From a virus (Duplodnaviria; Caudoviricetes), in the IMG/VR virus record IMGVR_UViG_3300032038_000044, positions 25,221 to 89,220 of that record: DNA of 64,000 bases. The stretch is one strand, 5' to 3'. The translations under genes were made by a program, and so were the position numbers. A model generated the notes under the pieces. The model was given only the letters and a program-made list of their open reading frames with translations, made no database searches and was not told the origin of the DNA. The first letter of the stretch is position 1. Each line of letters starts with the position of its first letter. Below, piece by piece: positions 7,094 to 23,363 of this stretch.

Positions 7094-7103
7094 ATCTTTT
7101 CTC

Positions 7104-7418: not shown

Positions 7419-7443
7419 ATATTCTCCTTTTATAGGGGGCGCA

Positions 7444-7809
7444 TTACTTTGCGCCCTTAGCCTTTGGTGGTCTGTGCTTTGTCAACTTGAGTGTGTACTC
7501 TGTTGTACCTTGCTTAAATGATACCTCAACCTCGTTCTTAACTGATATATCCGTGACATCAGAGAACTGACCGAGGGTTTCCGCCATCTTCTCAATGAGA
7601 ACTTTCTTCTCTTCGTCTATCTTGCGGACTACATTTCTTTTCTTCTTTTCTGTTGTTGCCTGAACATAGGTTTTAATCTCTGTCGCGCCCTGTTCCATCT
7701 TTGCCATCTCTAAGGCTTCTTCCCTAGTGACTGGCTCTCCATCCTCTTCACATTCTTTCATAATCTGTGTAACGAGAACTTCAATATCGACTTCTTTCTT
7801 CTTTGCCAT
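7444..7809 (-). CDS. hypothetical protein
   Basis: ORF with RBS and upstream promoter (unit B). Confidence 0.7.
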   Translation of the reverse strand: MAKKKEVDIEVLVTQIMKECEEDGEPVTREEALEMAKMEQGATEIKTYVQATTEKKKRNVVRKIDEEKKVLIEKMAETLGQFSDVTDISVKNEVEVSFKQGTTEYTLKLTKHRPPKAKGAK

Positions 7810-7844
7810 ATCCTATTTCCTTTCTTTTTTTATTTTCTAAAAAT

Positions 7845-7890
7845 ATTTTATCATATTTTCAAAAAATTTTCAATAGTAAAATTGCACAAA
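7845..7890 (-). promoter_or_regulatory. cassette unit B (left half only): leftward promoter plus TGCACAAA box
   Basis: -10 at 7845-7850, box at 7883-7890, same 33-bp offset as other units. Confidence 0.65.
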
Positions 7891-7919
7891 AATTTTTTAA
7901 TTTTTTGGTTGGGGAAGAT

Positions 7920-8642
7920 TTAATCTTCCCACAACAGTTTACGCATCTTCTTATGCTGACGATAGCAATATGCCATAATTTCCTTTTCTATCATTACATC
8001 TTCAAGCCCAGTATGAGCCTCTGTGAAGTCATTATCTCCACTAATGAAACGATATAGAATCTCTGCGGTGAATCTAGGCTTACCAGTCTTAGTTGCATAT
8101 CCATTATCCTGGCAGAATCTGATATATGTAGGCATCTTACCCACAACATCCTTAGCCATCTTGAGCGTATCGCAAATCTTGATATTAGGGTTGAAGAAGT
8201 AGCGATACTTTGACTTTGTAAGCCATCTCTGGGTATTCTGAACTGTGCCATAATCAAATCGTGCATTGTGAGCATATATCTCCTCTACACCATACTTGGC
8301 AATAACTTCATTGAAGATTACCCAAATATTGTAAAATGATGTTAAAGTTCTACGACCTGCCTTAATATCTTCCCAATACATAGGAACTTTACTTGCGTAG
8401 TATGCGGACTTCATTAATTCCTTTTCATTACAGAATATATCAGCATTAACAAATGAAAATGCTTCATATACGTTACCACGCTTATCAACTACTGCAAATC
8501 CAAAGTCGTATGTAAACATATTCCACGGACTTACCTCTGTTAAACCTCTATCGAGTGGACAAGTTTCTGTATCAAATACAATCTTATATGAGATACGGTG
8601 GTCTATCCAACCATTGTGATGTTTGTTTTCAATTTTCTTCAT
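7920..8642 (-). CDS. DEDDh 3'-5' exonuclease (DnaQ/RNase T-like)
   Basis: ExoI VFDTET, ExoII AHNARFD, ExoIII AHTGLEDV. Confidence 0.85.
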   Translation of the reverse strand: MKKIENKHHNGWIDHRISYKIVFDTETCPLDRGLTEVSPWNMFTYDFGFAVVDKRGNVYEAFSFVNADIFCNEKELMKSAYYASKVPMYWEDIKAGRRTLTSFYNIWVIFNEVIAKYGVEEIYAHNARFDYGTVQNTQRWLTKSKYRYFFNPNIKICDTLKMAKDVVGKMPTYIRFCQDNGYATKTGKPRFTAEILYRFISGDNDFTEAHTGLEDVMIEKEIMAYCYRQHKKMRKLLWED

Positions 8643-8761
8643 TTCTTTTTTCTTATTCCTTTCTTTCTTTATATACTTATTATAGCATATCTTGGAACTC
8701 TTGTCAACAACTTTTTTATTTCTTTTTTTTTGTTGTCCGTTCCTTTGTTTTCTATATTAGT

Positions 8762-8917
8762 ATTGTACCATACTAGGTGAGGTTTGTATAGTAGGCAATT
8801 TGCACAAAATTTAGGGAAAATGGTTGAAAATTTTTGTGCATAATTGCCTCTTGACAAAATCCCAAGACTATGTTATAATGGAAAATACTCGCCTTTTTGT
8901 GTGCAAAACGGCGAGGG
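8762..8917. repeat. cassette unit C: divergent promoters, box pair 8801-8840, hairpin 8888-8915 (28 nt)
   Basis: TTGACA 8851, TATAAT 8874 (17-bp spacer). Confidence 0.85.
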
Positions 8918-8938
8918 CAGTATAACCCTCGCCCGTCA

Positions 8939-9232
8939 TTATCTAATCACGCTCCATTTTATAGGCTCTTCAATCTCAATTTTTACATCAAAGACTACAT
9001 TATACATACCATGATAACAATCATGTATTATATCCAAATCTTCTAAAACTTCTTCATCTGCTTCATTACATACTGTATAGACATTATTATCTGATGTATT
9101 CAAATAACAATTATCAGTAATTTTTAAACATAAAGTATCAGGCTTATCATCCCAGACAAAGAAGCCACAATCTAGCTCATAAAAAGCTTTTCTTTCAATT
9201 TTATTATCCTTTTTCTGTTCAAAATTTAACAT
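8939..9232 (-). CDS. hypothetical protein
   Basis: ORF with AAAGGAG RBS. Confidence 0.65.
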   Translation of the reverse strand: MLNFEQKKDNKIERKAFYELDCGFFVWDDKPDTLCLKITDNCYLNTSDNNVYTVCNEADEEVLEDLDIIHDCYHGMYNVVFDVKIEIEEPIKWSVIR

Positions 9233-9244
9233 ATATTATCTCCT

Positions 9245-9688
9245 TTATTTCTGCTCAATTATATCCATAGGGTCTCTTTCATCTAGAGATAGATGAATAT
9301 TACCATCATAATCTCTTTTAAGATGGAAGTAACCTACTTCATCACACCCATTAGTCATCATAAGTGACTGTAAGTCGTTCTCAATTATCATCAATCTAAC
9401 TGTTTTACCAATGCCATAGGCATATCCACATTCCCAGGCAGTACCTGTGTCTCCATATAGACCATGGCTAATAACCCAGACCTCATCAGCTCGTTGTATA
9501 TCTTCCACATCGTGCTGAAAGACCTTTAGCCCCCATTCCGCATTTGGCATATCCATTCCGCAGTCAACTTCAAAGTCCATTGGGAATATAGGTGTAATAT
9601 CCTCACGGGCGTCAAGTTCTGCTCTAAGGGTCTTTAGAATATCTCTTTCCGTATCATTGAAGAATGGACTAGCAATATATACTACCAT
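9245..9688 (-). CDS. nucleoside 2-deoxyribosyltransferase-like protein
   Basis: VYIASPFFN, DVEDIQRAD, DTGTAWECGYAYGIGK motifs. Confidence 0.85.
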   Translation of the reverse strand: MVVYIASPFFNDTERDILKTLRAELDAREDITPIFPMDFEVDCGMDMPNAEWGLKVFQHDVEDIQRADEVWVISHGLYGDTGTAWECGYAYGIGKTVRLMIIENDLQSLMMTNGCDEVGYFHLKRDYDGNIHLSLDERDPMDIIEQK

Positions 9689-9951
9689 TAGAATAAGCCC
9701 CCTTTCGTAAGCATTAGTGCGAGTGTTAGACCGGTAAATAATACATCCTTAATCTTATCACTCATAGGTCTGTTAAGTGAGAATGTTCTATATGACGCGA
9801 TAATATTCGCTACCAAATAACAACCCTGACCTAACATATAGTTTTTACCAACGAGAACCTGCCCACATATTAGACCTATCATAATAATATAGTTGAGATT
9901 CTCAAATGCGCGTCTTAAACGCTTTGCTTCACTTTCTTTTCTCTTGTTCAT
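9688..9951 (-). CDS. small membrane protein
   Basis: About three hydrophobic segments; stop overlaps the start of the next gene. Confidence 0.6.
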   Translation of the reverse strand: MNKRKESEAKRLRRAFENLNYIIMIGLICGQVLVGKNYMLGQGCYLVANIIASYRTFSLNRPMSDKIKDVLFTGLTLALMLTKGGLF

Positions 9952-9981
9952 ACTTTCTTTTCCTTTCCTTTCTATGTATTT

Positions 9982-10050
9982 ATTGTATCATAGGTTGATG
10001 TGTTTGTCTATTGTGCAAATTGTAGGAAAATGCGGACTTATTTTTGTGCA
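9982..10050. repeat. cassette unit D (degenerate): leftward promoter plus box pair, no hairpin
   Basis: TGTGCAAA at 10012 and TTTGTGCA at 10043-10050. Confidence 0.55.
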
Positions 10051-10068
10051 AAATTTAATTCAATTCCT

Positions 10069-10542
10069 TTATTTATCTTCTTCATTTCTTGCCCATTCTC
10101 CTAACTTCTCTAATATTTCCACAACACGTGGATGTTCATTTGCAAAGTACACAGCCCAAAAGGTTGCCGCCACTTCGTCAGGTAATTTAAAATATTCCGT
10201 CTTTAAAATAGCAACATAGCCATCTATATTATCATCTTCTAAGGCTTCAATAGCTTTTTCAATTTTCTCCTTTTCCGCCATTATTTCTTCCTTTTGTTCA
10301 TCAGATATTCTTGGAAGTGTTATTGAATGACCTATCTCGTGTAATATAGATAAAGCAAAAGGACAATTAACTTTATATCCAAAAGTTGATTCAATATCTT
10401 CATTGAAAGCCCTATCTTGAATTTCATCACAATTTACACGATATGTTAAAGTATCATCATTTTCATCATACTGAAAATCATCTCCCTTAACCACATTCTT
10501 AATATTGAAATTGCGCTGGATGTATAATTCTAATGTATTCAT
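10069..10542 (-). CDS. HExxH zinc-metallopeptidase-like protein (paralogue 1)
   Basis: SILHEIGH plus downstream PDEVAATFWA. Confidence 0.65.
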   Translation of the reverse strand: MNTLELYIQRNFNIKNVVKGDDFQYDENDDTLTYRVNCDEIQDRAFNEDIESTFGYKVNCPFALSILHEIGHSITLPRISDEQKEEIMAEKEKIEKAIEALEDDNIDGYVAILKTEYFKLPDEVAATFWAVYFANEHPRVVEILEKLGEWARNEEDK

Positions 10543-10566
10543 TTACTTATCTCCTTTCCTTATGTA

Positions 10567-10690
10567 TTTATAATACCATAAAATTAAGGAAAATGCAACC
10601 TAAAAAAATGCACAAAATCACATTTGAAATTTTGTTGAAACTGCCTATTGACAAAAAATTTTGCTCGACTCGAATGAAGTCGAGCAACCC
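10567..10690. repeat. cassette unit E (short subtype): boxes, TTGACA without -10, hairpin 10661-10687
   Basis: TTGCTCGAC-N9-GTCGAGCAA, 27 nt. Confidence 0.8.
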
Positions 10691-10710
10691 AAAGGTTGCT
10701 CTTACCTCAA

Positions 10711-11976
10711 TTAGAGTTCATTAATATGAAGATTGATGATTTCATCAATAGCCTCAATCATAGGTACATCTACTGAACTAATATTTACATTGTTTCTATA
10801 TCTAGCTTCAACAGTAGCACCCTGTTCCTTGTTGAAACGGCAAGTTAAATATGATTTATCTGGACTTCCAATCTTTCGTATAAAATAGATATAATTTCTA
10901 CCCTCAAGAATAGAGCCATCATAGTAATAACCAACACAGTTGTTCTGCTGACGACCCTCATCAATCTTTTCAGCTTGGTTCTGTGGTACAATTACTATAT
11001 ACCCATCAAGCTTATGAGTATTAATGAAGTTAAGCTTCTGTAACTGAGCGCTCAGTTCTTTATTTCTAAGATTTTCAAGTAAGTTTTCAGCGTTTCTAAT
11101 ATTTACCCCTAGCGTTCTATTTGTATCTAAAGTGAACTCAAGTTCTTCTTGTCGTAAATCATCTACAACATCTATGAGGTCTCTAAGAAGCTGACTTATA
11201 CCATTTAATCTCTCAAAACATATTGTATTTTCAATTACTTTTAATAATTGACTAGGTGGTAATATATCAACCATATTTTTATAATTGTTTCTTATATCAA
11301 GACACTGAAAGATAAAACCTCTCTCTTTAGCTGAATAGTTAGAATAATCTCTATCCACCTGACACCTAGAAATAGCTATGCGCCAATTTCTACCATGTAT
11401 ATCTAAATACCTAGAAAAATTTTTAGGCATAACTTTTGGGTCAAAATTGTTACTTTTTAGTTCTTCTATAATAGATTTAACTTCTGTAAAGCTAGTTGCA
11501 TAATTGAAAATCCATTCATAATCAAATAATTTAATAATATCATCAAAAGAATTAAAACCACAATCAACAGTCATTCTGTAATTACCAAAGTCATTTTCTT
11601 TTGTGATAAAATCATAAGAAAACCGTCTAATCATGTGCATATTTTGAGCTTCAAAATTTAATATGTTCTTATTTTTATAAAATGACCTATAAGGATTAAC
11701 TATAGCTATATCTTTAACTATCTCATGTAATGACTTCTTATTTGGGTCATGGTCAACTATATATTTAATAGGAGACGGATATTGTACCTTATATTCAACC
11801 TGAAGTCTCTCAAGACTTGCCTTTATTGCTGGAGCATTAACACTACTATGGTCTAACTGTTTACAACAACTCATAGAAAATAATGCAACATCAGTTGTAG
11901 TAAAATCATTTACTCTTGAAATGATTACCTTTAACATATTATCCAATTCTTTCTTTTCATAATAATTTAATCCCAT
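10711..11976 (-). CDS. PcfJ-like domain protein
   Basis: C-terminal IIVPQNQAEKIDEGRQQNNCVGYY...IYFIRK...LTC pattern. Confidence 0.7.
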   Translation of the reverse strand: MGLNYYEKKELDNMLKVIISRVNDFTTTDVALFSMSCCKQLDHSSVNAPAIKASLERLQVEYKVQYPSPIKYIVDHDPNKKSLHEIVKDIAIVNPYRSFYKNKNILNFEAQNMHMIRRFSYDFITKENDFGNYRMTVDCGFNSFDDIIKLFDYEWIFNYATSFTEVKSIIEELKSNNFDPKVMPKNFSRYLDIHGRNWRIAISRCQVDRDYSNYSAKERGFIFQCLDIRNNYKNMVDILPPSQLLKVIENTICFERLNGISQLLRDLIDVVDDLRQEELEFTLDTNRTLGVNIRNAENLLENLRNKELSAQLQKLNFINTHKLDGYIVIVPQNQAEKIDEGRQQNNCVGYYYDGSILEGRNYIYFIRKIGSPDKSYLTCRFNKEQGATVEARYRNNVNISSVDVPMIEAIDEIINLHINEL

Positions 11977-12037
11977 TTTTTATTACCTATTTCCTTTCTT
12001 TTCTTGTAAAGATTTCTTACCTCTTCCTTATGTATTC

Positions 12038-12190
12038 ATTATACTACCTCTACCCTCTAATGTCAAACAAAAAAATGCACAAATTGCGGGAAAACTTTTT
12101 GACATTTTTTATGCAAATTTCCTCTTGACAAAACCGCCTAGGTGTGGTACAATGTTGAATATTGGTCGCGACGCGCGCTAGCGACCAACG
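12038..12190. repeat. cassette unit F: divergent promoters, boxes 12076-12115, hairpin 12162-12188
   Basis: TTGACA 12125, TACAAT 12148. Confidence 0.85.
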
Positions 12191-12199
12191 CAATAAAAA

Positions 12200-12500
12200 A
12201 TAGCCACTATCCACCTATTGCAATCAGTGAATAATGACTATTAGTGCGTGGTAGCCAACCACTAGTATGCTCTTCAGCGCTATTAACCTATAACTAGGGC
12301 AGGTTTCGTCACGCAAGAAACCTACAAACTGCCTCAGTGACTTTAGCGAACACTGCTCCGCTGCCCCTATCTTATCCAAGTTGGCTAACGCTTGGATAAC
12401 TGCTACTGTCAAGAAGTGTGAGGATTCGGACCTCTAATCCCATATATGACACCCCTAGTTTGTAAGGGGTAGGTAGTCATTCCTACCCCTAGCACCTATG
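12200..12500 (-). ncRNA. candidate structured ncRNA/3' UTR containing a tRNA-like minihelix (12412-12456) and a predicted kissing loop
   Basis: 300 nt with no credible ORF, at least 5 hairpins, T-loop GAGG-TCCGAAT-CCTC stacked on an 8-bp stem. Confidence 0.6.
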
Positions 12501-12504
12501 AAGA

Positions 12505-12837
12505 TTACTCTGCGAGAGAGTAAGCTGACTTCTTAGCATCCTTTACGACCTTACCAGCCTTAATAAGTCTACCAAGAGAAGCTGTTACCTTTGGAACTGA
12601 GCCAAATGCTTCGACATCCTTTGCAAAGATATTTGTTGGTGACATAGGCTCTGTACCAAGTACGGCAAGTACCTTTTCATCAATATTAGCCTGAGCCTCA
12701 GCTACCTTTTCAGACTTACCTGAATACTTCTTCACGATAGACTCCTTGAGTGCCTCAAGACGCTCCTTAACCTCTGCATCATCAACAACCTCAATTGCTT
12801 TCTCAAGTGCTACTTTGTACGAAATTTTCTTTTCCAT
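12505..12837 (-). CDS. small basic protein with C-terminal winged-helix-like domain (paralogue 1)
   Basis: MSPTNIF...VPKVTASLGRLIKAGKVVK wHTH-like pattern; preceded by stacked promoters. Confidence 0.7.
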   Translation of the reverse strand: MEKKISYKVALEKAIEVVDDAEVKERLEALKESIVKKYSGKSEKVAEAQANIDEKVLAVLGTEPMSPTNIFAKDVEAFGSVPKVTASLGRLIKAGKVVKDAKKSAYSLAE

Positions 12838-12923
12838 AGTTTTTTCTTCCTTTCTTTTTTGAAAAATGTTTTTGTTTCTTTACATCTTTATTATATCAGA
12901 TGTTTTTTACTTTGTCAAGAGGT

Positions 12924-12969
12924 TTTTTGAAATTGTTTTCAAATCTCACTTTGGATTTGTTATCTTTTC
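12924..12969. repeat. 46/47-bp repeat copy 1 (copy 2 at 24140-24186)
   Basis: 43 identical nt around a 3-4 nt variable core. Confidence 0.85.
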
Positions 12970-13077
12970 TTTACCTCTTTACATTTACTATTATAGCAAA
13001 TGTTTTGAAGTTTGTCAAGAACTTTTTTTATTTTTTTAATTTTTATTTTTAAGTTCTTTCCTTCACTTCTTGATTAA

Positions 13078-13231
13078 ATTATAGCAAAAAATTTTTCAAA
13101 TTACAATTAGTAATGTTGCACAAATTTTAGGAAAAGCCATTGAAAAATTTTGTGCAATTTTTCACTTGACAAAAAGCCTGGGAGTGTGGTATAATGGAAA
13201 TATTGCGCGTTTCTTGAGAAAACGCGCAACC
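13078..13231. repeat. cassette unit G: boxes 13117-13156, hairpin 13203-13229
   Basis: TTGACA 13166, TATAAT 13190. Confidence 0.85.
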
Positions 13232-13259
13232 AAATAAAAAAGAGGGGTTACCCCCCTCT

Positions 13260-13460
13260 TTATCTGTATGTAACACACATAATCTGTTCTATATCAATGT
13301 AAAGTGGCATACTACCTTTAAGCCCTTCAAACGAATAACCAGTAATCCTGCCATTAGTAAGGTCTACCTTAGCATAATTACAACGTATGCGCAAAGACTT
13401 TCCATTTTTAAAAATGATTAATGCACTTTTTATCTTTTTATCTTTCTTTTTACCAAACAT
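13260..13460 (-). CDS. hypothetical protein
   Basis: ORF, stop/start overlap with upstream gene. Confidence 0.6.
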   Translation of the reverse strand: MFGKKKDKKIKSALIIFKNGKSLRIRCNYAKVDLTNGRITGYSFEGLKGSMPLYIDIEQIMCVTYR

Positions 13461-13972
13461 TAAAACATTCCTTCAAATCCAATAAGTTTAGCAAATTTTT
13501 TTGGCTCTTTTTGAATAAATCCATTATCCTGAAGAAACTCTTTACACTCTTCAATAGGTAGTCTTGATACTACCATATCTAATGTCCAATGCTCTAATAC
13601 TATTACTTCTTTTTTGAATTGAAAAACATCATAAGGCTTAAACTTTGTAGTATATATACCAAAGTCATCAAACTCAGCATAGTATTTTGGTTTACTTGAG
13701 AATAAACCAAATTTAACTTTTTTAGAAATGGTTATTTCTAATTTTTGCTCTAAAGCTGTTTTCCAATTAAAATAATCGTGGGCGGTATTATAATCACTTA
13801 TATCTATACCAAGACCAAATAATTCTTTAGCAGGAATTAATTTTGTATCGAAGCTCTCTGGTATTTCTCCATAGCGTGTTTTTGTTGTAATTATGCTATC
13901 AACCCAATCTGATGAAATAAATTCACCATTTTTTAAAAGTTTAATTTCTGTATAATAAATTCCTTTACTCAT
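13460..13972 (-). CDS. hypothetical protein
   Basis: ORF overlapping neighbours. Confidence 0.65.
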   Translation of the reverse strand: MSKGIYYTEIKLLKNGEFISSDWVDSIITTKTRYGEIPESFDTKLIPAKELFGLGIDISDYNTAHDYFNWKTALEQKLEITISKKVKFGLFSSKPKYYAEFDDFGIYTTKFKPYDVFQFKKEVIVLEHWTLDMVVSRLPIEECKEFLQDNGFIQKEPKKFAKLIGFEGMF

Positions 13973-14153
13973 ATTCCCTTATTTCCTTTCTTAATTTATC
14001 GCGGCGGCGACCCTTGCGCCCAGTCTTGTACTTTTCAGAGACCCAAGCGCCGTTTCCGCATTGGTATGGATTGAATTTTTCCATATCTATAAGTGACTTT
14101 TCAATACTATCCATCACTTGAATTGTTTCTCTTCTTTTTCTCTTGTGAGCCAT
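13965..14153 (-). CDS. small basic hypothetical protein (start revised to MAHKRK)
   Basis: AAGGAGATAAGGTTATG leader. Confidence 0.6.
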   Translation of the reverse strand: MAHKRKRRETIQVMDSIEKSLIDMEKFNPYQCGNGAWVSEKYKTGRKGRRRDKLRKEIREYE

Positions 14154-14194
14154 AACCTTATCTCCTTTACATTTATAATTATAGCATAATGCTT

Positions 14195-14707
14195 TTACTC
14201 TGTCAAGCACTTTCTATAAAATCTTTTTAATTCTTTTTTGATAAGATTGTCAAAGTGTAACACTTCTTTTCTGTTGTTGTGGATGTAGTCACAAGCCCAC
14301 TGAGTAGCCATAAGCTCATCAGCCAAGTGCCAGTAGTAGTTACCTATACTTGGTGTCCATTTTGGTTGCTTACTTAACATTTCCTTTACTTCATTACAGT
14401 AATCATCTTCACTACTTGTAAGATAATTCTGTGTCATAATGTGACCTACTTCGTGTAATAATGAAAGGGTAAAAATGTCAACACCATCAATGTTAAATTC
14501 TTCTTTTACAAAGTCCTTAAAAGCCTCGTCAGCTTTATTCTTCATAAGAACAGTATAGAATATTGTATTTGCATCATCGTGGCAACAACATAAGAAATCA
14601 TAACTGATTCCACCGCTATTACAACCAAAAGAAGTGATGTATCTATCGACAACCCTTGTAACCTTATGAAGTTCTTTACTAACCTTATTATCTATTCTCT
14701 TACTCAT
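14195..14707 (-). CDS. HExxH zinc-metallopeptidase-like protein (paralogue 2)
   Basis: SLLHEVGH plus ADELMATQWA. Confidence 0.65.
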   Translation of the reverse strand: MSKRIDNKVSKELHKVTRVVDRYITSFGCNSGGISYDFLCCCHDDANTIFYTVLMKNKADEAFKDFVKEEFNIDGVDIFTLSLLHEVGHIMTQNYLTSSEDDYCNEVKEMLSKQPKWTPSIGNYYWHLADELMATQWACDYIHNNRKEVLHFDNLIKKELKRFYRKCLTE

Positions 14708-14734
14708 AGGTCTTATCTCCTTCCTTATGTAATC

Positions 14735-14855
14735 ATTGTACTATGAATTGAGGGAATTGTCTAGTCGTCAGATTGCACAAAGTTCAAATCAAAAATTTGT
14801 TGAAATTGCCTATTGACATGAAATACTGTCCGGCGCGCTTGACGTCGGACAGCCC
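14735..14855. repeat. cassette unit H (short subtype): boxes, TTGACA without -10, hairpin 14826-14852
   Basis: CTGTCCG...CGGACAG, 27 nt. Confidence 0.8.
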
Positions 14856-14924
14856 AAACCATCAAAGCCCCCTACATTGCGTAGGGGGCTCTGAAAGGAA
14901 GGTATAAGGTTTTTCGTGTTAGAA

Positions 14925-14978
14925 AAGTGGGGAGGGGAGTTGCACCCCTCTAGCTAGGACTTTCTTCCTCGCCCACCT
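14925..14978 (-). ncRNA. tRNA-like element lacking an anticodon arm (54 nt)
   Basis: AGGTGGG/CCCACTT acceptor-like stem, AGGA-AGAAAG-TCCT hairpin, GAGGGG-TGCAACT-CCCCTC T-arm. Confidence 0.6.
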
Positions 14979-14983
14979 AGACA

Positions 14984-15322
14984 TTAGACAAGCTTGTAGC
15001 CTGTCTTTTTACCACTGATAGCAACCTTTTCAGCCTTGCCATCTGCAACAAGTCTTGTAAGTGATGCAGTAACCTTTGGTACTGAACCAAGTGCCTCAGC
15101 ATCCTTTGCGAAGATTGCAGTTGCTGACTGTGGCTCATCAGTAAGGACTGCAAGAACTGCCTCATCAACTGCTGACTGAGCCTGAGCGACCTTTTCTGAC
15201 TTTCCTGAATACTTCTTGACGATTGATTCCTTGAGAGCCTCTAATCTCTCCCTTACTTCCCCGTCTGCTACTTCCTCGATTGCCTTTTCAAGTGCTACCT
15301 TGTAACTCATTTTCTTCTCCAT
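14984..15322 (-). CDS. small basic winged-helix-like protein (paralogue 2)
   Basis: Clearly homologous to 12505-12837 (MEKK.SYKVALEKAIE, SVPKVTASL). Confidence 0.7.
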   Translation of the reverse strand: MEKKMSYKVALEKAIEEVADGEVRERLEALKESIVKKYSGKSEKVAQAQSAVDEAVLAVLTDEPQSATAIFAKDAEALGSVPKVTASLTRLVADGKAEKVAISGKKTGYKLV

Positions 15323-15527
15323 TTTTAATTACCTCTCTTTCTTTTTTAATGGATTTCTTTTTGTTTACATCTTTATTATAGCAAATTTTTTTAAGTCTGT
15401 CAACACTTTTTTTTATTTTTTTTAACAGACTTTAGAGGACTGTCAACCACCTAAAACAGTTAGCGTAGCCAACTTCCCACCGACCATCCTAGTAGTGCGG
15501 TTTCCGCATTTCCTCTTTACATTTATA

Positions 15528-15681
15528 AGTATAACAAATTTTAATTTTCTTTTCTATTGTTAAAATACACAAATTATAGGAAAAATCTTGGCTGTTTTTT
15601 GTGCAATTTTACTCTTGACAAAACTGCCAGGGTATGTTATAATGGTGAATACTGGGCATTTTGCGCGAAAATGCCCAGCCC
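15528..15681. repeat. cassette unit I: boxes 15566-15605, hairpin 15652-15678
   Basis: TTGACA 15615, TATAAT 15638. Confidence 0.85.
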
Positions 15682-15702
15682 ACTAAAGGCTAGGCATTGG
15701 AT

Positions 15703-16071
15703 TTAATCATCATAGCTAAAGTAGTAAACATCAACAACCTTTGTTTTCTCGAATCTTTCTCCATCCTCAGAAGTATAAACTACTGTTTCTTGTTTGCAAT
15801 CACAATAACTTTTTTTAAGTCTTACCCTTTTATCTGGAAAGGCTTTCATTAAGGCTTTTCCAATTAAACTGAGTCTTTCTTTAGGATTAAAACTACGGTC
15901 ATTGTCAATACTATTTTCTATTGTTTTTGATAGAACATAGTTACCAGTAAGTTTTGAAATATCTCTAGCAGTAAAATTCTGTGTATCGTCATTTTTTAGT
16001 TTCTTTAATGCAGATACTAATAAATCTAGTGTTTTTTCATTTATTTCTCTTAATGCTGTTCTTCTACTCAT
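15703..16071 (-). CDS. hypothetical protein, possible wHTH (start probably MSRR; track start 16098)
   Basis: FTARDISKLTG segment; GAAGAGG RBS. Confidence 0.55.
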   Translation of the reverse strand: MSRRTALREINEKTLDLLVSALKKLKNDDTQNFTARDISKLTGNYVLSKTIENSIDNDRSFNPKERLSLIGKALMKAFPDKRVRLKKSYCDCKQETVVYTSEDGERFEKTKVVDVYYFSYDD

Positions 16072-16630
16072 CCTCTTCACACTCCTCTTCATTATCATTA
16101 TACACTTCTTTTACTTTTTTTACAGCGCAAAAACAGTGTTCACTCTTACCTCTAAAAAGTACACTTCCATCATCGCCATAATATTTCTTTTTATTTGGCT
16201 TTAACTTGTATGTTACTTCATAACCGAGTTCTTCACTCTTCCAATAAGGAAGTTCACTTTGATGTATAAGTTTGCGCTCAAGTGTTTTAAGAGAAGTGAA
16301 ACTAATGTTTGCATTTTTATAAATCTCTTCCGGTGTAAAATACTCGCTAGGATTCTTTGCTAAAAATTCAAGACATTTTTTGTTTTCATCCTTAAGTATC
16401 ATACCTATGTACTCTGTAATCTCTGCCTCATTCATCTTAGTTAATAATGAAATAGTTGCAGGTTCAATATCATCTTCACCAACCCAAGCAGAAAAATTAT
16501 CATCTTCTACTAAATATTCTACCCTATATGTATATTCAGTATCAGTAATTTTGACAATTTGCCCCTCTAATAATCTACCTATTGACCTTGTCATAATAAC
16601 TTCGTCATTTACTTCATATTGAATTTTCAT
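16064..16630 (-). CDS. hypothetical protein, SH3-like N-terminus plus possible wHTH (start revised to MKIQYEV)
   Basis: YEVNDEV...GQIVKI...YRVEY pattern; FTPEEIY segment. Confidence 0.55.
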   Translation of the reverse strand: MKIQYEVNDEVIMTRSIGRLLEGQIVKITDTEYTYRVEYLVEDDNFSAWVGEDDIEPATISLLTKMNEAEITEYIGMILKDENKKCLEFLAKNPSEYFTPEEIYKNANISFTSLKTLERKLIHQSELPYWKSEELGYEVTYKLKPNKKKYYGDDGSVLFRGKSEHCFCAVKKVKEVYNDNEEECEEDE

Positions 16631-16683
16631 ATTTTTTACCTTTTCCTTTCTTTCCTTTATTATACGCTCTTGGCTTGAGGTTG

Positions 16684-17145
16684 TCAAGCCAATTTGCGTA
16701 AAATTTCAATAATATTTTCATTTGCATCAATGGTGTCGCCATTTTTCCAATTAACTCGGTTTGGTTCTTCATCATCAACTAAGATGCCTGTACCATATCT
16801 CTCACAGATAGCACTCTTATCAGTTCCGTATGGAACTATGATGACTTCATCAAGTAAGTCCATTATGAGATACTTTCTTAACCAATTCCTCTTTGCAAGG
16901 TCTATCTGCTGAGCATATATCTTATCACAACTTCTTGATAACCAAGATATAACTCCTAACTTATATCCCTTTGACTTGAGGTCAGCGAGAACTTCCAAGA
17001 ACTCAACAAGAGGATAGATAACCTTTGCTTTAACGTATGGGCGGACACGCTTGTTATTGAGGTCGTCTAACCAACCATCTACACCATAGAAGTCAGCGAG
17101 TGTACCATCCATATCAAACCATACCCATTTGCTTTCCTTATTCAT
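16684..17145 (-). CDS. HAD-superfamily phosphatase, 5'(3')-deoxyribonucleotidase-like
   Basis: Motif I WFDMDGTLADF, motif IV ILVDD. Confidence 0.8.
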   Translation of the reverse strand: MNKESKWVWFDMDGTLADFYGVDGWLDDLNNKRVRPYVKAKVIYPLVEFLEVLADLKSKGYKLGVISWLSRSCDKIYAQQIDLAKRNWLRKYLIMDLLDEVIIVPYGTDKSAICERYGTGILVDDEEPNRVNWKNGDTIDANENIIEILRKLA

Positions 17146-17178
17146 AACCCTTATCTCCTTTCCTTATCTTATGTACTC

Positions 17179-17342
17179 ATTATATACCCTTACACCCTAC
17201 CCCGTCAAGCATTTTCACATAAAAAATTGCACAAAATGCGGGAATGGCGGCGAGGGAACTTTGTGCAAGATTACCATTGACAAAACACCAAAGGGGTGGT
17301 ATAATTGAAAATACTGCCCGTTTGGAATGCGAACGGGCAGCC
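17179..17342. repeat. cassette unit J: boxes 17228-17267, hairpin 17314-17340
   Basis: TTGACA 17277, TATAAT 17300. Confidence 0.85.
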
Positions 17343-17365
17343 AATCACTCAAAAAAGGGGTAGAC

Positions 17366-17638
17366 CTAGGTCCAGCCCCTTTCCCGCTTTATTTCCTCAT
17401 AGCGTTTCTCATTTTCTTCTTTTATCTTCTCTTGGTCATATACTCTCATCTTGAGCTTAGTGTAGCCATACTTGTAAAGGTCAGCTTTAGTCCAGTACCT
17501 CTTTTGACAAATCTTGCCAAGCGCCTTTGGCTTGTAGTCGATTCCTTTATTCTTCAACCATTCTTTTGTTGGTACTTCGACTAATGTACTAACTGGCTTG
17601 TATCCTTTTGAACTAAAAACTGTAACCTGTACTTTCAT
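17366..17638 (-). CDS. hypothetical basic protein (start revised to MKVQVT)
   Basis: AGAGGT RBS. Confidence 0.6.
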   Translation of the reverse strand: MKVQVTVFSSKGYKPVSTLVEVPTKEWLKNKGIDYKPKALGKICQKRYWTKADLYKYGYTKLKMRVYDQEKIKEENEKRYEEIKRERGWT

Positions 17639-17699
17639 TACTTTACCTCTTTTCTTTTGATAAATCAATTATACCATACTTTGAATAGGGTGTCAACCC

Positions 17700-18104
17700 C
17701 TATTCAAGTTCAATGTATTGTATCGCATCAGCAACCTTCTTTGAATAATGACATTTCATAAAAGGGCTATTCACTGAATACTTGTAATTAGCAACCTTTT
17801 TGTTATACTCAGTAACCTTATCATAGAAAGTAGTTTTTGAAATATCTTCATAGGTTGATTTCATAGCTTTTGCCTGGGCTGTTAATGTTTGATACTCTAC
17901 TTGATATTCTGTTATTGTTTTATCTTGATTATACTTTGTGTGTACGTCTATAATATCTAAGACACTTATTATAAGTACAGCACCAAAGATGATACCAAAA
18001 AAGAGACATATAGTAAACGTCATATCTGCATCATTATGATATGCCCTAAACATAAGTACAACCATTAATAAAACTGCAATACCTGATAAAATTTCAATTA
18101 ACAT
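17700..18104 (-). CDS. membrane protein (2 TM plus coiled segment)
   Basis: Hydrophobic N-terminus; GTGAGG RBS. Confidence 0.65.
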   Translation of the reverse strand: MLIEILSGIAVLLMVVLMFRAYHNDADMTFTICLFFGIIFGAVLIISVLDIIDVHTKYNQDKTITEYQVEYQTLTAQAKAMKSTYEDISKTTFYDKVTEYNKKVANYKYSVNSPFMKCHYSKKVADAIQYIELE

Positions 18105-18119
18105 TTTCTTTACCTCACT

Positions 18120-18278
18120 TTACTTTTCATTCATTAAAGCCTTATATGTTCTATATATATAATCGGCTTTATGCGTATTTCTTACAAGTTCCTTAAACCA
18201 TACAACCCTTATAGAGTTCGCGCCATACTTGGCAACTAGGTCATTTATCAATTCGTCTTTTGTTATTTTCTTTTTCAA
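18120..18278 (-). CDS. small hypothetical protein (52 aa, TTG start)
   Basis: Manual translation MKKKITKDELINDLVAKYGANSIRVVWFKELVRN...; GGAAGGTGG RBS. Confidence 0.5.
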   Translation of the reverse strand: MKKKITKDELINDLVAKYGANSIRVVWFKELVRNTHKADYIYRTYKALMNEK

Positions 18279-18325
18279 TCTACCACCTTCCTTATTTTAT
18301 TCTTCTTTCCTTACCTTATGTACCC

Positions 18326-18481
18326 ATTATACACCCTCACCAATGTCATTACAAGGTGTAATAATGCACAAAATTGCGGGAGTTTCATCACTAATCTTTG
18401 TGCAACTTTCTACTTGACAAAACCACCCAAACCATGTTATAATAGAATTTACTGGTCGTTTGGAAAGCGAACGACCAGCCC
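18326..18481. repeat. cassette unit K: boxes 18365-18404, hairpin 18452-18478
   Basis: TTGACA 18414, TATAAT 18438. Confidence 0.85.
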
Positions 18482-18503
18482 AAGAAAGACTGGTCGTAAT
18501 TCT

Positions 18504-18923
18504 TCATAAGCAAAGAAAACTAAGTGAGTAAATATGGTTTGGCTCTAAATTTTCAAATGCTTTGCTTGTGTTAGGAAAAGCTGGAAGCCAGACAACGTCA
18601 TATCCCCAGATGCCACCATTAAGTGAAACATATCTTTGATTGTATAAAATTTGAAGAACATATTCAAAATTATTTTTTGGCGGTCTGCCTGGGCGATTCC
18701 TAGTTATTGGTTGTTTTAATTTTCTAATACCGGCAACTTTGTTTCTAAAAGGTGCAATAATATTCTTTATATATTCTCTCTCTTCTTCTGTGAGTACGTT
18801 TCTTCTTTCGCAAAGTGGAGCATCAAAGAAATTTTCTCTTGTATTACCATAGCGCCCCTCTTCTTTATCTTTTTTGGAGCGACCTTCATATCCAGTCCAC
18901 TCGATGTATTCTTTTTCTTTCAT
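18504..18923 (-). CDS. hypothetical protein, C-terminal domain shared with 19954-20379
   Basis: LTEEEREYIKNIIAPFRNKV...LPAF vs LDAVEKKYLSDVIRPFRSKI...LPYF. Confidence 0.65.
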   Translation of the reverse strand: MKEKEYIEWTGYEGRSKKDKEEGRYGNTRENFFDAPLCERRNVLTEEEREYIKNIIAPFRNKVAGIRKLKQPITRNRPGRPPKNNFEYVLQILYNQRYVSLNGGIWGYDVVWLPAFPNTSKAFENLEPNHIYSLSFLCL

Positions 18924-19193
18924 TTAAGCCACCACCTCTCTGCGTTCTGCCCTAAGTTCCTTAATTGACTTAGGACGCTCTTTCCACTTGCCAAGTTCAT
19001 CATCGAGTATCTGCTCAAAGACGCTTGGTCTATACACAAAACCCTCTTTGGCAGGTGTAATCGGTTTAAACTTACCCTTACAACCGAATGGCTCATTGAC
19101 CGGTACTAACTTGACCTGTTTAACAGTATCATTAGCGACCTCATTATAATTTGTTGTTACATCATTACCCTTTACATAAAATACAGTTCTCAT
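18924..19193 (-). CDS. hypothetical protein
   Basis: ORF with GTGAGG RBS and upstream promoter. Confidence 0.6.
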   Translation of the reverse strand: MRTVFYVKGNDVTTNYNEVANDTVKQVKLVPVNEPFGCKGKFKPITPAKEGFVYRPSVFEQILDDELGKWKERPKSIKELRAERREVVA

Positions 19194-19249
19194 ACCTTAA
19201 ATCCTCACTTTTATTTTTTTCTTTATTATATCATGGGGGTGACTAATTG

Positions 19250-19681
19250 TCAACCCTCATGTTCATTAATTTCTTTCTTAATTGCATTGATAGCAATTAA
19301 AATCTGTTCTTCAATAGTCGCACAAGTATTCTCATAGCTGAAAGATGTTTCATCCTTTATAGCCTCGATATATGACATTATCTCGCCAAGGTCGAAATAG
19401 TCCATCTCAAGCTTTGCAAGGTTAATACCCTTGACAATATCAAGACCATCTTCATCCTCACCCTCAAGGTATCCAACATACATCCAACGAGCATCCTCTT
19501 CTGATTCATCATAGAATGTAATATACATTCCATCAAGAAGATTGTCTATAACGACTTTATTCTGTGCAACCTTTTTAGCAATTTCTCTTAATAACTCACA
19601 AGCATTAACAAAAGCAACATTATATGCAAGTCTATCAAGCTCCTCATTATACTTCTTCATCATTTCTCCAAAAATACTCAT
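19250..19681 (-). CDS. hypothetical acidic protein
   Basis: ORF with AGGAAGG RBS. Confidence 0.65.
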   Translation of the reverse strand: MSIFGEMMKKYNEELDRLAYNVAFVNACELLREIAKKVAQNKVVIDNLLDGMYITFYDESEEDARWMYVGYLEGEDEDGLDIVKGINLAKLEMDYFDLGEIMSYIEAIKDETSFSYENTCATIEEQILIAINAIKKEINEHEG

Positions 19682-19716
19682 AATTTTGTACCTTCCTTCC
19701 TTAACTTTGTAAGCTA

Positions 19717-19872
19717 ATTATACACCCTAGCATGTAAATAAGTCATCTGACAAAATCACCAAAATAATGGGAACTTGTTTGTTAAAATTTGTATAATTTT
19801 CCCTCTTGACAAAACACCCTAACCTGTGGTATAATAGAAGCACTGCGCGTTTGAAGTGAAAACGCGCAGCCC
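19717..19872. repeat. cassette unit L: degenerate boxes 19756-19795, hairpin 19843-19869
   Basis: TTGACA 19806, TATAAT 19830. Confidence 0.8.
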
Positions 19873-19953
19873 AATCTCTCGGACTGCCTCGCTCTCACAC
19901 GACTTATTTTTGGTTAGGTAGTCGCCAAACCTAGACCTTAAAGGCGGTCGCGC

Positions 19954-20379
19954 CTATAACCCGAGGTCTTTTAGTGTGTACTTTGTTCCTATATCCATAC
20001 CTTTATACATATTGCTTTTGCCACTAAAGTATGGAAGGCAAACATGGTCTTTCTGAAGTTTAATCAGTATATAGTATTCACCAAAGCTGTGCTGTTTTGA
20101 AATGTATTCAATCTTACTTCTAAAAGGTCTGATAACATCACTTAGATATTTCTTCTCAACGGCGTCAAGCACCGGTGTGTGATATTCTTTGTTGAGAAAG
20201 TCCATTTCTCTTTTATCACAACTAACGCTATAACATCCATAATGCTCATCGTGACTACCCTCAATAACGCTCTTTAGAACTTCTCCGTCTATGTTATAGG
20301 CTAACACTTCCTTTACAAACTGTGGATGTTCTTTGATAATTACTTCAAAATTTGTCATTCTCTTATTCCTCACTCTCAC
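19954..20379 (-). CDS. hypothetical protein (paralogous C-terminus to 18504-18923)
   Basis: Shared motif, ends YTLKDLGL. Confidence 0.65.
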   Translation of the reverse strand: MRVRNKRMTNFEVIIKEHPQFVKEVLAYNIDGEVLKSVIEGSHDEHYGCYSVSCDKREMDFLNKEYHTPVLDAVEKKYLSDVIRPFRSKIEYISKQHSFGEYYILIKLQKDHVCLPYFSGKSNMYKGMDIGTKYTLKDLGL

Positions 20380-20680
20380 TTAATAATGTGTATGATACAT
20401 ATTTATCATCACTTTTCTTTGCAGTATCTTCGCAATCGAGCTTAACTCGAACCTCTGCCCCACACTGAAGCTCGTCTGAGTCAAACTCAATACGTTCTCC
20501 GTTGTTAGCAAGTACAGTAATCCAACCATTAACGTCAGTGATAACTGTGCCATCAACGTATCTATAATCTGTGGTTGCCTTGTATAATCTGCCAACTACC
20601 CATAAACCAGCTACTAATACAATAGTAGTAATAACTATACTAATGATACCGAATACTCTGTCAACTTTCTTTGTTTCCAT
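20363..20680 (-). CDS. membrane-anchored protein (1 TM plus beta domain)
   Basis: N-terminal TM helix; GTGAGG RBS. Confidence 0.6.
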   Translation of the reverse strand: METKKVDRVFGIISIVITTIVLVAGLWVVGRLYKATTDYRYVDGTVITDVNGWITVLANNGERIEFDSDELQCGAEVRVKLDCEDTAKKSDDKYVSYTLLSESEE

Positions 20681-20810
20681 AACCTTACCTCACTTATTTT
20701 CTTTAATTTATTATAGCAAATTTTTTTAAGTTTGTCAACAAGGGAATTACTAAGGTTGACTTTTCAAACTATGCTACTGAGTGCCATTCTGTTCCCTCTT
20801 GACATTATTA

Positions 20811-20965
20811 AGTATAACAAAACAAGAGAGAGAATACTACTGGCAAAATGCACAAAATTGCGGGAGGGGGCGACACCTAGGTTTGTGCATTTTTGCCATT
20901 GACAAAACCTCAGGACTGTGGTACAATGCAAATTACTGCACGCTTGGGGCGCGAGCGTGCAGCCC
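20811..20965. repeat. cassette unit M: boxes 20849-20889, hairpin 20936-20962
   Basis: TTGACA 20899, TACAAT 20922. Confidence 0.85.
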
Positions 20966-21013
20966 AATAAAAAATGGCTCGGAGTTTCACCGAGCCGTGG
21001 AGGAGGATTATGC

Positions 21014-21322
21014 CTAGCAGTAAACTAGGCTCATGTCTGCCCATTTTAGGATGCTGATTTGCTGACAATCTCTGCCGACTCTCAGCGCCTTTGTCTTGGT
21101 TGGTTCGCGGTGGCTTTTGTCGATGTAGTAAATGCCCTTGCTAAACCATACACCACAATTTCCATTGTATTCCTTGATGGCTTTCATAGCTTCCTCAGGT
21201 GTCTTGCACTCGACACCCTCTGTCGCTACTTGATAACCGGTCTTAAACTTAACGCGCTTACCATTCTTTAAAGTCATTCCGTCATCTTCCTTTAAGTTCT
21301 TAATACTTCTTACATTTATCAT
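21014..21322 (-). CDS. hypothetical protein
   Basis: ORF with AGGAAGG RBS. Confidence 0.65.
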   Translation of the reverse strand: MINVRSIKNLKEDDGMTLKNGKRVKFKTGYQVATEGVECKTPEEAMKAIKEYNGNCGVWFSKGIYYIDKSHREPTKTKALRVGRDCQQISILKWADMSLVYC

Positions 21323-21357
21323 AGGTTTGTACCTTCCTTTCCTTACCTTGTAACTAC

Positions 21358-21510
21358 ATTATAGCACGACACCCCACCGAGGTCCATAGGCAGATTGCAC
21401 AAAAATCGGGATACCCTTTAGCCTAAGTTTGTGCAAAATGCCCCTTGACAAAACACCCTGGGTGTGTTATAATGTGCGGCACTGCTCGCTGCGCAAGTTT
21501 GCGAGCAGCC
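21358..21510. repeat. cassette unit N: boxes 21396-21435, hairpin 21482-21508
   Basis: TTGACA 21445, TATAAT 21468. Confidence 0.85.
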
Positions 21511-21644
21511 AAACAAAAAAATAGGCTCCCGCCTCAGCGAGTGCCTATAAATTAGTGGTTTTTATCCCAGCCCACCCTGGTGGCTCATACTCTGTTTTAG
21601 TTGCGCCGATTACCTGGCTACAACAATTTGGAAGGTAGGTTATG

Positions 21645-21788
21645 TCAACCCACAGGAAGAACCTGTGGTGTTGTATGCTTATAGTAGTCCTTGAAGTCCT
21701 CTCTAGCCTTCTTCTCAACTCTTTCAGTTTCAAGCATTAAGAGCATCTTATCAAGTTCATCCATGTTATTATCAAATCCGTTCATCAT
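21645..21788 (-). CDS. small protein MDELDKML...REDFKDY (paralogue 1; start revised)
   Basis: Synonymous third-position differences vs paralogue 22341-22481 support this frame. Confidence 0.7.
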   Translation of the reverse strand: MMNGFDNNMDELDKMLLMLETERVEKKAREDFKDYYKHTTPQVLPVG

Positions 21789-21863
21789 AATTTTTATCCT
21801 CACTTTCTTCCTTAACCTTATGTCTACATTATACACTTTGTTGGGGGTGTTGTCAACACCTTT

Positions 21864-22082
21864 TTAGAAAATTCTTGTAAAACTTTTTCCGCTTTCAAAA
21901 GTACGGGTTGCACTGATTACCTTAGTTGTTGACTCATAACCAAGTACAGTAACCTTTCTGTTAGCTAATGCGCTAATGAAGTTGTCAGCATTGGCGTTAA
22001 GCTCCTTATTAGAGTTGAAGTTAATTCTCCTTGTCTTTATGCCGTTGCCATCTGTAAACTTAATAACTAAACTTGTCATCAT
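21864..22082 (-). CDS. hypothetical protein
   Basis: ORF with RBS. Confidence 0.6.
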   Translation of the reverse strand: MMTSLVIKFTDGNGIKTRRINFNSNKELNANADNFISALANRKVTVLGYESTTKVISATRTFESGKSFTRIF

Positions 22083-22116
22083 AACTGTTACCTACCTTTC
22101 CTTACCTTGTAACTAC

Positions 22117-22270
22117 ATTATAACAGAGGGTCAGAGCAAAATCCATATGTAAATTGCACAAATTTCGGGATGGTTTTTGCTTTACTATTGTGCAAAATCA
22201 ACAAACAAATATATCATATATCGCCTATATATCTAAAATGCGGCGCGTTTGGGGTGATAACGCGCCGCCA
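22117..22270. repeat. cassette unit O: boxes 22155-22194, no rightward consensus promoter, hairpin 22241-22267
   Basis: CGGCGCGTT-N9-AACGCGCCG, 27 nt. Confidence 0.75.
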
Positions 22271-22340
22271 ATCAAAAAAGGGCGCTATATGCGCCCCAGT
22301 GCGTGTTATTTGTTAGAGGTCACGCTCCCCGGAAGGTAGG

Positions 22341-22481
22341 TTATGCGCCAACCGGCAATATCACCGGTGTATGCTTCTTAGTATAGTCCTTGAAGTCCTC
22401 GCGCATCTTCTTCTCTACGCGCTCAGCCTCAAGCATCATCAACATTTTATCAAGTTCATCCATATTATCATTAGTAAACAT
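22341..22481 (-). CDS. small protein (46 aa, paralogue 2), not in ORF track
   Basis: MFTNDNMDELDKMLMMLEAERVEKKMREDFKDYTKKHTPVILPVGA. Confidence 0.7.
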   Translation of the reverse strand: MFTNDNMDELDKMLMMLEAERVEKKMREDFKDYTKKHTPVILPVGA

Positions 22482-22504
22482 ATTTTCAACCCTCTCTTCC
22501 TTAA

Positions 22505-22771: not shown

Positions 22772-22822
22772 ATATAACCTTCTTCCTATCTATTGGTAGG
22801 TAGGGGCTTACGCCCCTAGCCT

Positions 22823-22972: not shown

Positions 22973-23005
22973 AACCTTATTCACCTTTCTTTGTGGATAT
23001 ATGCC

Positions 23006-23305: not shown

Positions 23306-23363
23306 AACCTTATCTCCTTATTAATATCTATGTGGTAGGTAGAGGGCTTTCGCCCTCTAGCCT

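Follow-up and report, generated by a model that had tools for sequence, protein, structure and literature searches.

The window analyzed here comprises the right-hand 64 kb of an 89-kb record of the IMG/VR database (IMGVR_UViG_3300032038_000044; label G000), which is estimated to be 61% complete. It encodes a sigma-like factor (phrog_5767), a terminase, a portal, and giant tail proteins. Between 4.7 and 24.3 kb lies the early region, a block of small genes that is transcribed leftward and encodes enzymes of nucleotide metabolism together with many proteins without assigned function. Its intergenic regions carry about 15 copies of a cassette with an inverted pair of an 8-nt box, TGCACAAA and TTTGTGCA, between back-to-back promoters, and this box pair is the subject of the present analysis. 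The phages of the clade are large siphovirus-like phages of Clostridia. The nearest named relatives are Enterococcus and Brevibacillus phages of 134–142 kb, with 25–36% identity in the sigma-like protein, and a megablast comparison of the region with GenBank phages gave no match. Rfam searches over positions 4000–25000 of the window gave nothing at E ≤ 0.1 and thus no family for the hairpins of the cassette, and a literature search with the 8-mer retrieved only primers and unrelated matches.

The exact pair TGCACAAA-N24/25-TTTGTGCA occurred six times in the window (units C, G, J, K, N, and, with N25, M; positions of all units are given in Table 1) and not once in 100 shuffled sequences. A previous reading of this DNA from the sequence only had assigned the same 40-bp span to units F, I, L, and O as well. 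In F, I, and O the span is present with one mismatch, whereas unit L had been overstated, as it retains the span but its boxes are degenerate. Exact single boxes were found 27 times in the window, compared to an expectation of 2.9. The genome-wide scan proposed in the same reading placed 23 of the 28 exact boxes of the 89-kb record at 4706–24307, and all of these 23 are intergenic and spread over about 16 units of the early region. The late region is devoid of boxes.

The promoters on both sides of the boxes were characterized with a consensus scan. The right box precedes the rightward TTGACA by N9 in seven units and by N10 in one, in agreement with the 9–10 bp claimed before. These rightward promoters have a consensus or near-consensus sequence (TTGACA-17/18-TGnTATAAT) and lead into short GC hairpins and T-runs, followed by a two-way terminator. 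The same spacing had been claimed for the left box, and N9/10 to the leftward -35 was indeed found in units B, C, F, G, H, I, K, N, and O. The distance is N19 in unit J, and the claim did not hold for unit M, for which the best-fitting distance is about N7 and no leftward -35 stands at N9/10. The leftward boxed promoters mostly combine an extended -10 with a poor -35 (TTGTAA, TGGACC, TGGATT, TATACA, TAGACA), as had been noticed earlier. The box is thus located at about -52 to -45 of its sigma-A-type promoter, or one helical turn more distant. Other leftward promoters form a second, unboxed class and have a perfect TTGACA-17-TGnTATAAT sequence, an A-rich upstream tract, and a palindrome, AAAAATTT(T), in the spacer.

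Next, the conservation within the cassette was quantified. The pairwise identity among eight N24 units was 95% at the 16 box positions and 34% at the inner 15 nt, and the hairpin stems covary freely. The difference between boxes and spacer shows that the boxes are conserved for their own sake, and not because the units are recent copies of each other. Within the box, G, G, and C do not vary in this genome and do vary in relatives. The semi-conserved GGGA/AGGA just inside the left box, which had also been described before, is present in all these units. Taken together, the comparison of the units supports the view that the box is a selected DNA site with an identical placement at both divergent promoters.

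The spacings were determined in 14 genomes of the clade, assembled from fetched stretches, with a total of 212 boxes. Divergent box pairs were separated by N14 (20 cases) or N24 (43 cases), with few cases at ±1. Convergent pairs, TTTGTGCA...TGCACAAA, were separated by N3 (5 cases in 4 of the 14 genomes, two of them in this window, at the two edges of the early region). The distance from the box to TTGAC was 9 (52 cases), 10 (10), 19 (17), or 20 nt (8). In the N14 units the right box lies 20 nt from the -35, i.e., it is shifted outward by exactly 10 bp, while the distance from GGGA to the -35 stays at 33 nt. The center-to-center distances of the boxes are 11, 22, or 32 bp, always whole helical turns, and the GGGA core is one turn away from the left box. 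Therefore, all elements lie on one face of the DNA. This phasing strongly implies a bound protein and is the strongest argument for it; the most simple candidate would be a dimer with a flexible reach, positioned beside both polymerases.

Two other roles of the boxes were considered and rejected. The box or GGGA could have been the -35 or -10 of an alternative sigma factor, but N14 and N24 units differ by 10 bp in the distance between GGGA and the box, and the late region is without boxes. The two boxes could also have formed an RNA stem of 8 bp with a loop of 14 or 24 nt, but the quantization in steps of 10 bp is a feature of duplex DNA.

The cassette, in the order sense promoter, box, GGGA core, box, consensus antisense promoter, and GC hairpin, is conserved in a wide clade of phages of 90–200 kb, in IMG/VR as well as in genome bins of Clostridia. 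In IMG/VR, the exact pair pattern was present at more than 116 loci among the matches listed, and many of the contigs with the cassette share early and structural genes with this phage. Orientation of 64 units by the box-adjacent GGGA revealed box-N9-TTGACAAA...TGGTATAATGGAAAttcg and a GC hairpin on the other side in 49 of them, and the promoter at the gene side was located at N9/10 or N19/20 from the box. To counteract ascertainment bias, 26 true cassettes were collected that were anchored on the antisense promoter alone. In this set the GG of the GGGA core is conserved to nearly 100%, 36–37 nt before TTGACA. Of the 26 cassettes, 3 have an exact right box and 9 have one with at most one mismatch; for the left box, these numbers are 5 and 13, respectively. 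Variants of the box are TTTGTGCA, TTTGTTCA, TTTGTGTA, and TTTGTGCG. The GGGA core is thus the invariant part and is kept more widely than the boxes, which differ from lineage to lineage. Neither this nor the spread of the apparently mobile cassette through the clade had been noticed in the sequence-only reading. Two relatives of 140–180 kb, G209 and G220, have the cassette, the core, and consensus promoters, but A/T-rich tracts instead of boxes, which shows that the box is a layer added to the cassette. The genome of the Enterococcus phage VRE9_2 (L241) is laid out in the same way, with 0 boxes in 25 kb. It contains two antisense promoter-hairpin units, in which GGGAT/AGGAT precedes TTGACA by 44 nt and is one turn more distant than in the window.

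We hypothesized that the box pair and the core form an operator for a dimeric protein, which would be located in the zone where RNA polymerase alpha subunits have their C-terminal domains (alpha-CTD) at both divergent promoters, and we regard the chances for and against this explanation as about balanced. The two boxes would be one operator shared by back-to-back host-type (sigma-A) promoters, within a cassette that separates early gene blocks. The protein, which is probably phage-encoded, would sit where the alpha-CTDs normally touch the DNA and would act simultaneously on both promoters, that of the genes (sense) and that of the hairpin (antisense). Because the sense promoters mostly have weak -35s and the antisense promoters have a perfect consensus, the logic of the phi29 protein p4 is the most likely one. 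p4 binds between the divergent A2b and A3 promoters and recruits the polymerase to the promoter that lacks a good -35 (PMC2731898), and it represses early promoters through the alpha subunit, according to a review (Rojo et al. 1998, pmid 9594570). Inverted-repeat sites upstream of one weak and one strong divergent promoter are common to both systems. In contrast, phi29 has one such locus and the window has about 15 copies, the sequences differ, and we infer the direction of regulation in the present case. As with p4, one contact might help the weak promoters and hold back the strong ones, and binding would move transcription, at about 15 units together, away from the antisense hairpins and towards the gene blocks, or in the opposite direction.

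On the phage side, the best candidates for such a protein would be the two paralogues encoded at 12505 and 14984, for which a coiled coil and a winged helix are predicted. The AlphaFold2 (AF2) model of the 12505 product, with a predicted local distance difference test (pLDDT) score of 87.5, had its best fold matches among the DNA-binding domains of MarR, IclR, Rrf2, Fur, and ArsR. The C-terminal ~65 residues superpose on IclR, Rrf2, MarR, and ArsR with a root-mean-square deviation of 1.3–3.0 Å (Foldseek probability ~1, E ~1e-2). The modeled domain has a winged-helix fold, with a three-helix bundle and a beta-hairpin wing, and a protein of this type would be a plausible dimeric binder for sites that are two or three turns apart. 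The 12505 product has a weak match to phrog_2440. The family is present in all 14 genomes, with 1–5 copies each, and with two copies in VRE9_2. Pfam and PHROG scans of the small early proteins did not reveal a DNA-binding domain beyond those mentioned here.

Several results weigh against the operator model. A boxed promoter is found upstream of the winged-helix gene in 2 of 2 cases in this genome, but in 0 of 38 cases in relatives, so that the test for autoregulation was negative. The winged-helix family does not track the boxes, but is also present in the box-less relatives and the box-less Enterococcus phage. A jackhmmer screen with 186 open reading frames (ORFs) of the complete relative G205 gave no real family that boxed genomes have and both G209 and G220 lack. 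In addition, simple repression does not usually involve a site at -45 to -52. Exact boxes occur in only 3–5 of the 26 cassettes that were collected independently of the box, and part of the clade can thus dispense with the boxes. The sequence-only reading had proposed that one phage factor coordinately switches all cassettes. The conservation of the box at both promoters and the quantized spacing strongly suggest a bound protein that could work on the two promoters of each unit, whereas a single phage factor stays a conjecture, and no real protein family tracks the boxes. Four products had been named as possible regulators. Those of 12505 and 14984 are still candidates because of the predicted fold and the presence of the family throughout the clade, but they stand behind boxed promoters in this genome only. 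The 24647 product is the sigma-like factor, and the late region is without boxes; the 5465 product has no family match.

Two apparent candidates from the searches were also discarded. The "families" that seemed to track the box in the screen with G205 turned out to be spurious ORFs over repeated cassette DNA. The very charged 121-aa protein encoded at 7444–7809 on the minus strand, which has an invariant C-terminal YTLKLTKHRPPKK-like tail, was found by BLAST in boxed phages and not in the box-less G209. However, a profile search detected it in 26 of 28 relatives, including G209, and the BLAST pattern was therefore an artifact of sensitivity. This protein has more than 138 metagenome homologues, and its gene often adjoins the winged-helix gene; no Pfam, PDB, or informative fold match was obtained (AF2 pLDDT 80).

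The alternative that survives best is that the boxes are sites for a global regulatory protein of the Clostridia host, which would tie early transcription to the state of the host; we regard this as possible, but rather unlikely. The 8-mer is exactly conserved across diverged phages with proteins that are only 35–60% identical, and a conserved host factor would explain this just as well. The box is not tracked by any phage protein, and in the relatives that infect Enterococcus, layout, GGGA core, and winged-helix genes are retained, with 0 boxes in 25 kb. A precedent exists, as the Spo0A (0A) boxes at early promoters of the phi29 family, which are also short, enable a host protein to switch them (PMC2731898). 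Two core positions, however, distinguish the box of the window from the 0A box (TGTGCAA versus TGTCGAA), strict pairing and phasing as found here have not been described for 0A boxes, and the three 0A-box words of the window lie outside of the boxed units. A search for box-N9/10-TTGACA-N16-18-TATAAT in 185,579 species genomes yielded at least 120 loci, mostly in Clostridia bins, and 13 of 129 sites among the matches listed were phage-type pairs. Some of the single boxes at N9-10 in Clostridia bins lie in front of T-box leaders, tRNA operons, and a thiamine pyrophosphate (TPP) riboswitch, and in 201 genomes of the Ruminococcus albus order the N9-10 spacing gave 32 matches, compared to 1 for the reversed word. 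Nevertheless, none of about 18 orthologous T-box promoters of the host order, which were chosen regardless of the box, carries it. The spacings in host genomes (range 0–30) are broadly filled, with weak peaks at 9, 18–20, and 29–30, whereas the phage pattern is sharp. Many consensus promoters in combination with an AT-rich 8-mer are, by our estimate, enough to give such numbers of matches by chance. Most of the single-box matches in Clostridia bins can thus be chance, and the host-factor explanation is not favored.

The N24 pair also occurs at the ends of phages of about 13 kb that share no protein with the large phages, even at the profile level, which would be in line with a host factor. These are linear contigs with inverted terminal repeats (L017, L028, L037, L054, L083, and ~30 more loci; IMG/VR sample 3300045988), and TGCACAAA-N24-TTTGTGCA is located 17–20 bp from both ends, followed by N9-TAGACA. 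However, they belong to one related family, and therefore count as a single independent observation. The pair in these phages could be a chance match, the site of a host factor at a replication origin, or a sign that a satellite reads the same signal.

It is considerably less probable, and in our view improbable, that the box is an UP-like element that is directly contacted by the alpha subunits of the RNA polymerase and strengthens both promoters without a dedicated regulator. The region from -52 to -45 is the zone of UP elements, a displacement by 10 bp is tolerated, the box-less relatives carry plain A/T-rich tracts at the place of the box, and promoters with weak -35s bear it. The region consensus AAATTTTGTGCAAAAT, which we take to resemble the E. 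coli UP consensus at most positions, was also counted for this explanation. However, the G, G, and C positions are as conserved in this genome as the T positions, which is not explained by the recognition of A/T-tracts in the minor groove. In addition, the unboxed perfect-consensus promoters use A-rich tracts instead, promoters of the host order show A-tracts and no box, and a fixed pairing of boxes (N14, N24, N3) would not be needed. Least probable of all, and very doubtful in our opinion, is a mobile or recombining cassette that is kept uniform by copying, with boxes that serve recombination or have no function of their own: about 15 repeats do lie between small accessory genes and occur in many phages with differing neighbor genes, repeated cassette DNA did create the spurious families mentioned above, and similar cassettes shuffle genes in T4-type phages (PMC2839356), but copying would homogenize the whole unit, whereas the spacer is 34% identical, the hairpin stems covary, and the boxes are 95% identical, and the helical-turn quantization is a signature of protein binding and not of recombination.

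Among known elements, the promoter-early stem-loop (PeSL) cassettes of T4-type phages (Arbiol et al. 2010, PMC2839356) are similar to the cassette as a whole. Both types of cassette are small, occur repeatedly between genes, and combine a strong host-type early promoter with a stem-loop, which in the present case were recognized in silico. Both are scattered among small non-essential genes of a plastic early region and are common to relatives with differing gene content. In contrast to the PeSL cassettes, which are one-directional and have no operator, the cassette of the window is bidirectional, with an inverted box pair and a GGGA core at a fixed helical phase, its antisense promoter would fire into a covarying GC hairpin, and the phages are siphovirus-like phages of Clostridia and not of the T4 type. 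The operator and the antisense promoter would thus be additions to a PeSL-like unit.

The sequence-only reading had also drawn a parallel to SPBRE, an element of the Bacillus phage SPbeta that is read by the master regulator MrpR, a protein with a tyrosine-recombinase fold that keeps the prophage silent (PMC10516654). SPBRE is likewise short and belongs to a large phage of Firmicutes, in which it is repeated in some ten or more promoter regions between genes, but SPbeta is temperate. The tyrosine recombinase domain PF00589 had no match in this record or in four complete relatives, while 14 of 14 control genomes were positive, although a very diverged MrpR could escape this search. The serine recombinase domain PF00239 was also without a match in this record, which is 61% complete, and in the four complete relatives. 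There was thus no sign of lysogeny or of an MrpR-like protein, the parallel to SPBRE and MrpR is reduced to an analogy, and the gene content suggests that the phage is probably virulent.

A more far-reaching version of the operator model would be a self-contained and portable direction switch, in which one factor reads the phase-locked operator and flips about 15 loci between the production of antisense hairpin RNAs and the expression of gene blocks. We regard this as unlikely, even a little more so than the host factor. If it were true, the cassette, which travels together with gene blocks within a large clade of phages from gut and rumen Clostridia, would automatically wire newly acquired genes into the timing program, and it would explain how shuffled accessory genes stay correctly regulated. 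The large uncultivated phages of these bacteria have no known transcription program, and the 40-bp operator is a concrete handle to it. Dozens of genomes have conserved its geometry (N3/N14/N24, and N9/10 or N19/20 to the -35), and the promoters should suit ordinary sigma-A polymerase. If one protein reads the operator, this protein would set the early schedule of the whole clade. The unit is also a compact natural design of bidirectional control that could serve Gram-positive synthetic biology.

Table 1. Boxed units, unboxed promoters, and genes of candidate binders in the early region. Positions refer to the window; N is followed by the number of nucleotides between elements, and promoters are given as -35, spacer length, and -10.
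Feature	Position	Strand	Description
Unit A	6655-6726		Convergent compact TTTGTGCA-N3-TTCACAAA (6655-6673) and single TGCACAAA (6719-6726); left edge of the early region
Unit B	7845-7890	-	Single box 7883-7890, N9, TTGAAA-17-TAAAAT; drives the 121-aa gene 7444-7809
Unit C	8762-8879		Leftward TATACA-17-TACAAT; exact 40-bp pair 8801-8840; rightward consensus 8851-8879 (N10)
Unit D	10010-10050		Atypical; two direct-orientation boxes (ATTGTGCA at 10010, TTTGTGCA at 10043) with AGGA between them
Unit E	10609-10616	-	Left box of a shortened unit; right box degenerate (TTTGTTGA); TTGACA runs into the hairpin
Unit F	12038-12153		Leftward consensus promoter (N9); pair 12076-12115 (right box TTTATGCA); rightward promoter 12125-12153
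Candidate binder 1	12505-12837	-	110 aa; long N-terminal helix (residues 21-59, 39 residues) and C-terminal winged helix-turn-helix predicted by AF2
Unit G	13078-13195		Leftward TTGTAA-17-TATAAT (N10); exact pair 13117-13156; rightward consensus 13166-13195 (N9)
Unit H	14735-14781	-	Single left box 14774-14781, N10, TAGACA-17-TACAAT; shortened like E
Candidate binder 2	14984-15322	-	112-aa paralogue of the 12505 product, 74% identical
Unit I	15528-15643		Leftward TAGAAA-17-TATACT (N9); pair 15566-15605 (left box TACACAAA); rightward consensus 15615-15643
Unit J	17179-17305		Leftward TTGACG-18-TATAAT at N19 (one helical turn further); exact pair 17228-17267; rightward consensus 17277-17305
Unit K	18326-18443		Leftward TTGTAA-17-TATAAT (N10); exact pair 18365-18404; rightward consensus 18414-18443
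Unit L	19717-19835		Degenerate boxes TCACCAAA ... TTTGTATA at 19756-19795; GGGA kept; rightward consensus 19806-19835
Unit M	20849-20927		Exact N25 pair 20849-20889; rightward TTGACA-17-TACAAT 20899-20927; leftward -35 very poor
Unit N	21358-21473		Leftward TGGACC-17-TATAAT (N9); exact pair 21396-21435; rightward consensus 21445-21473
Unit O	22117-22194		Leftward TGGATT-17-TATAAT (N9); pair 22155-22194 (right box ATTGTGCA); no rightward -35/-10
Box cluster	24232-24318		AGCACAAA, TTCACAAA, and convergent TTTGTGCA-N3-TGCACAAT (24300-24318); right edge of the early region, upstream of the sigma-factor gene
Unboxed promoters	6393-6421, 8679-8707, 12890-12918, 12990-13018, 14178-14206, 15375-15403, 20710-20738, 24087-24115, 24566-24594	-	Leftward, perfect consensus

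Some further features of the cassettes and promoters were observed. The two shortened cassettes at 10609–10693 and 14774–14858 are 73% identical; their right box is degenerate, and TTGACA is directly followed by the hairpin, without a -10. The promoter of the sigma-factor gene carries the AAAAATTT spacer motif, which about a dozen relatives also keep upstream of their sigma gene, and this motif may be a separate operator inside the spacer. In several relatives, i.e., G230 (at ~110.5, 111.7, 115.8, 118.2, and 121.1 kb), G221, and G231 (L453-L472, L399-L409), two consensus promoters face each other about 95 bp apart across one GC hairpin, which would therefore be transcribed from both strands. 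One unit, at ~99.56 kb in G221 and ~145.9 kb in G231, has both half-sites changed symmetrically (CGCACAAA ... TTTGTGCG). A binder with two-fold symmetry could produce such a change, but the two phages are close relatives, and the change hence counts as a single event.

Among the neighboring genes, the phrog_20187 protein encoded at 7920–8642 is shared more widely in the clade than any other early protein, and its match to an exonuclease-like Pfam family is weak. In the early region of VRE9_2, a pair of a winged-helix gene and a phrog_20187 gene occurs twice (5869–7099 and 11423–12670). At the left end of the early region, the non-coding stretch at 4473–5000 contains three copies of a unit of about 80 nt that ends with GGTGGAGT (4615–4786). 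The repeats are followed by a GC-rich segment and then by a rightward promoter, which precedes 5465–6154, the only plus-strand gene of the region.

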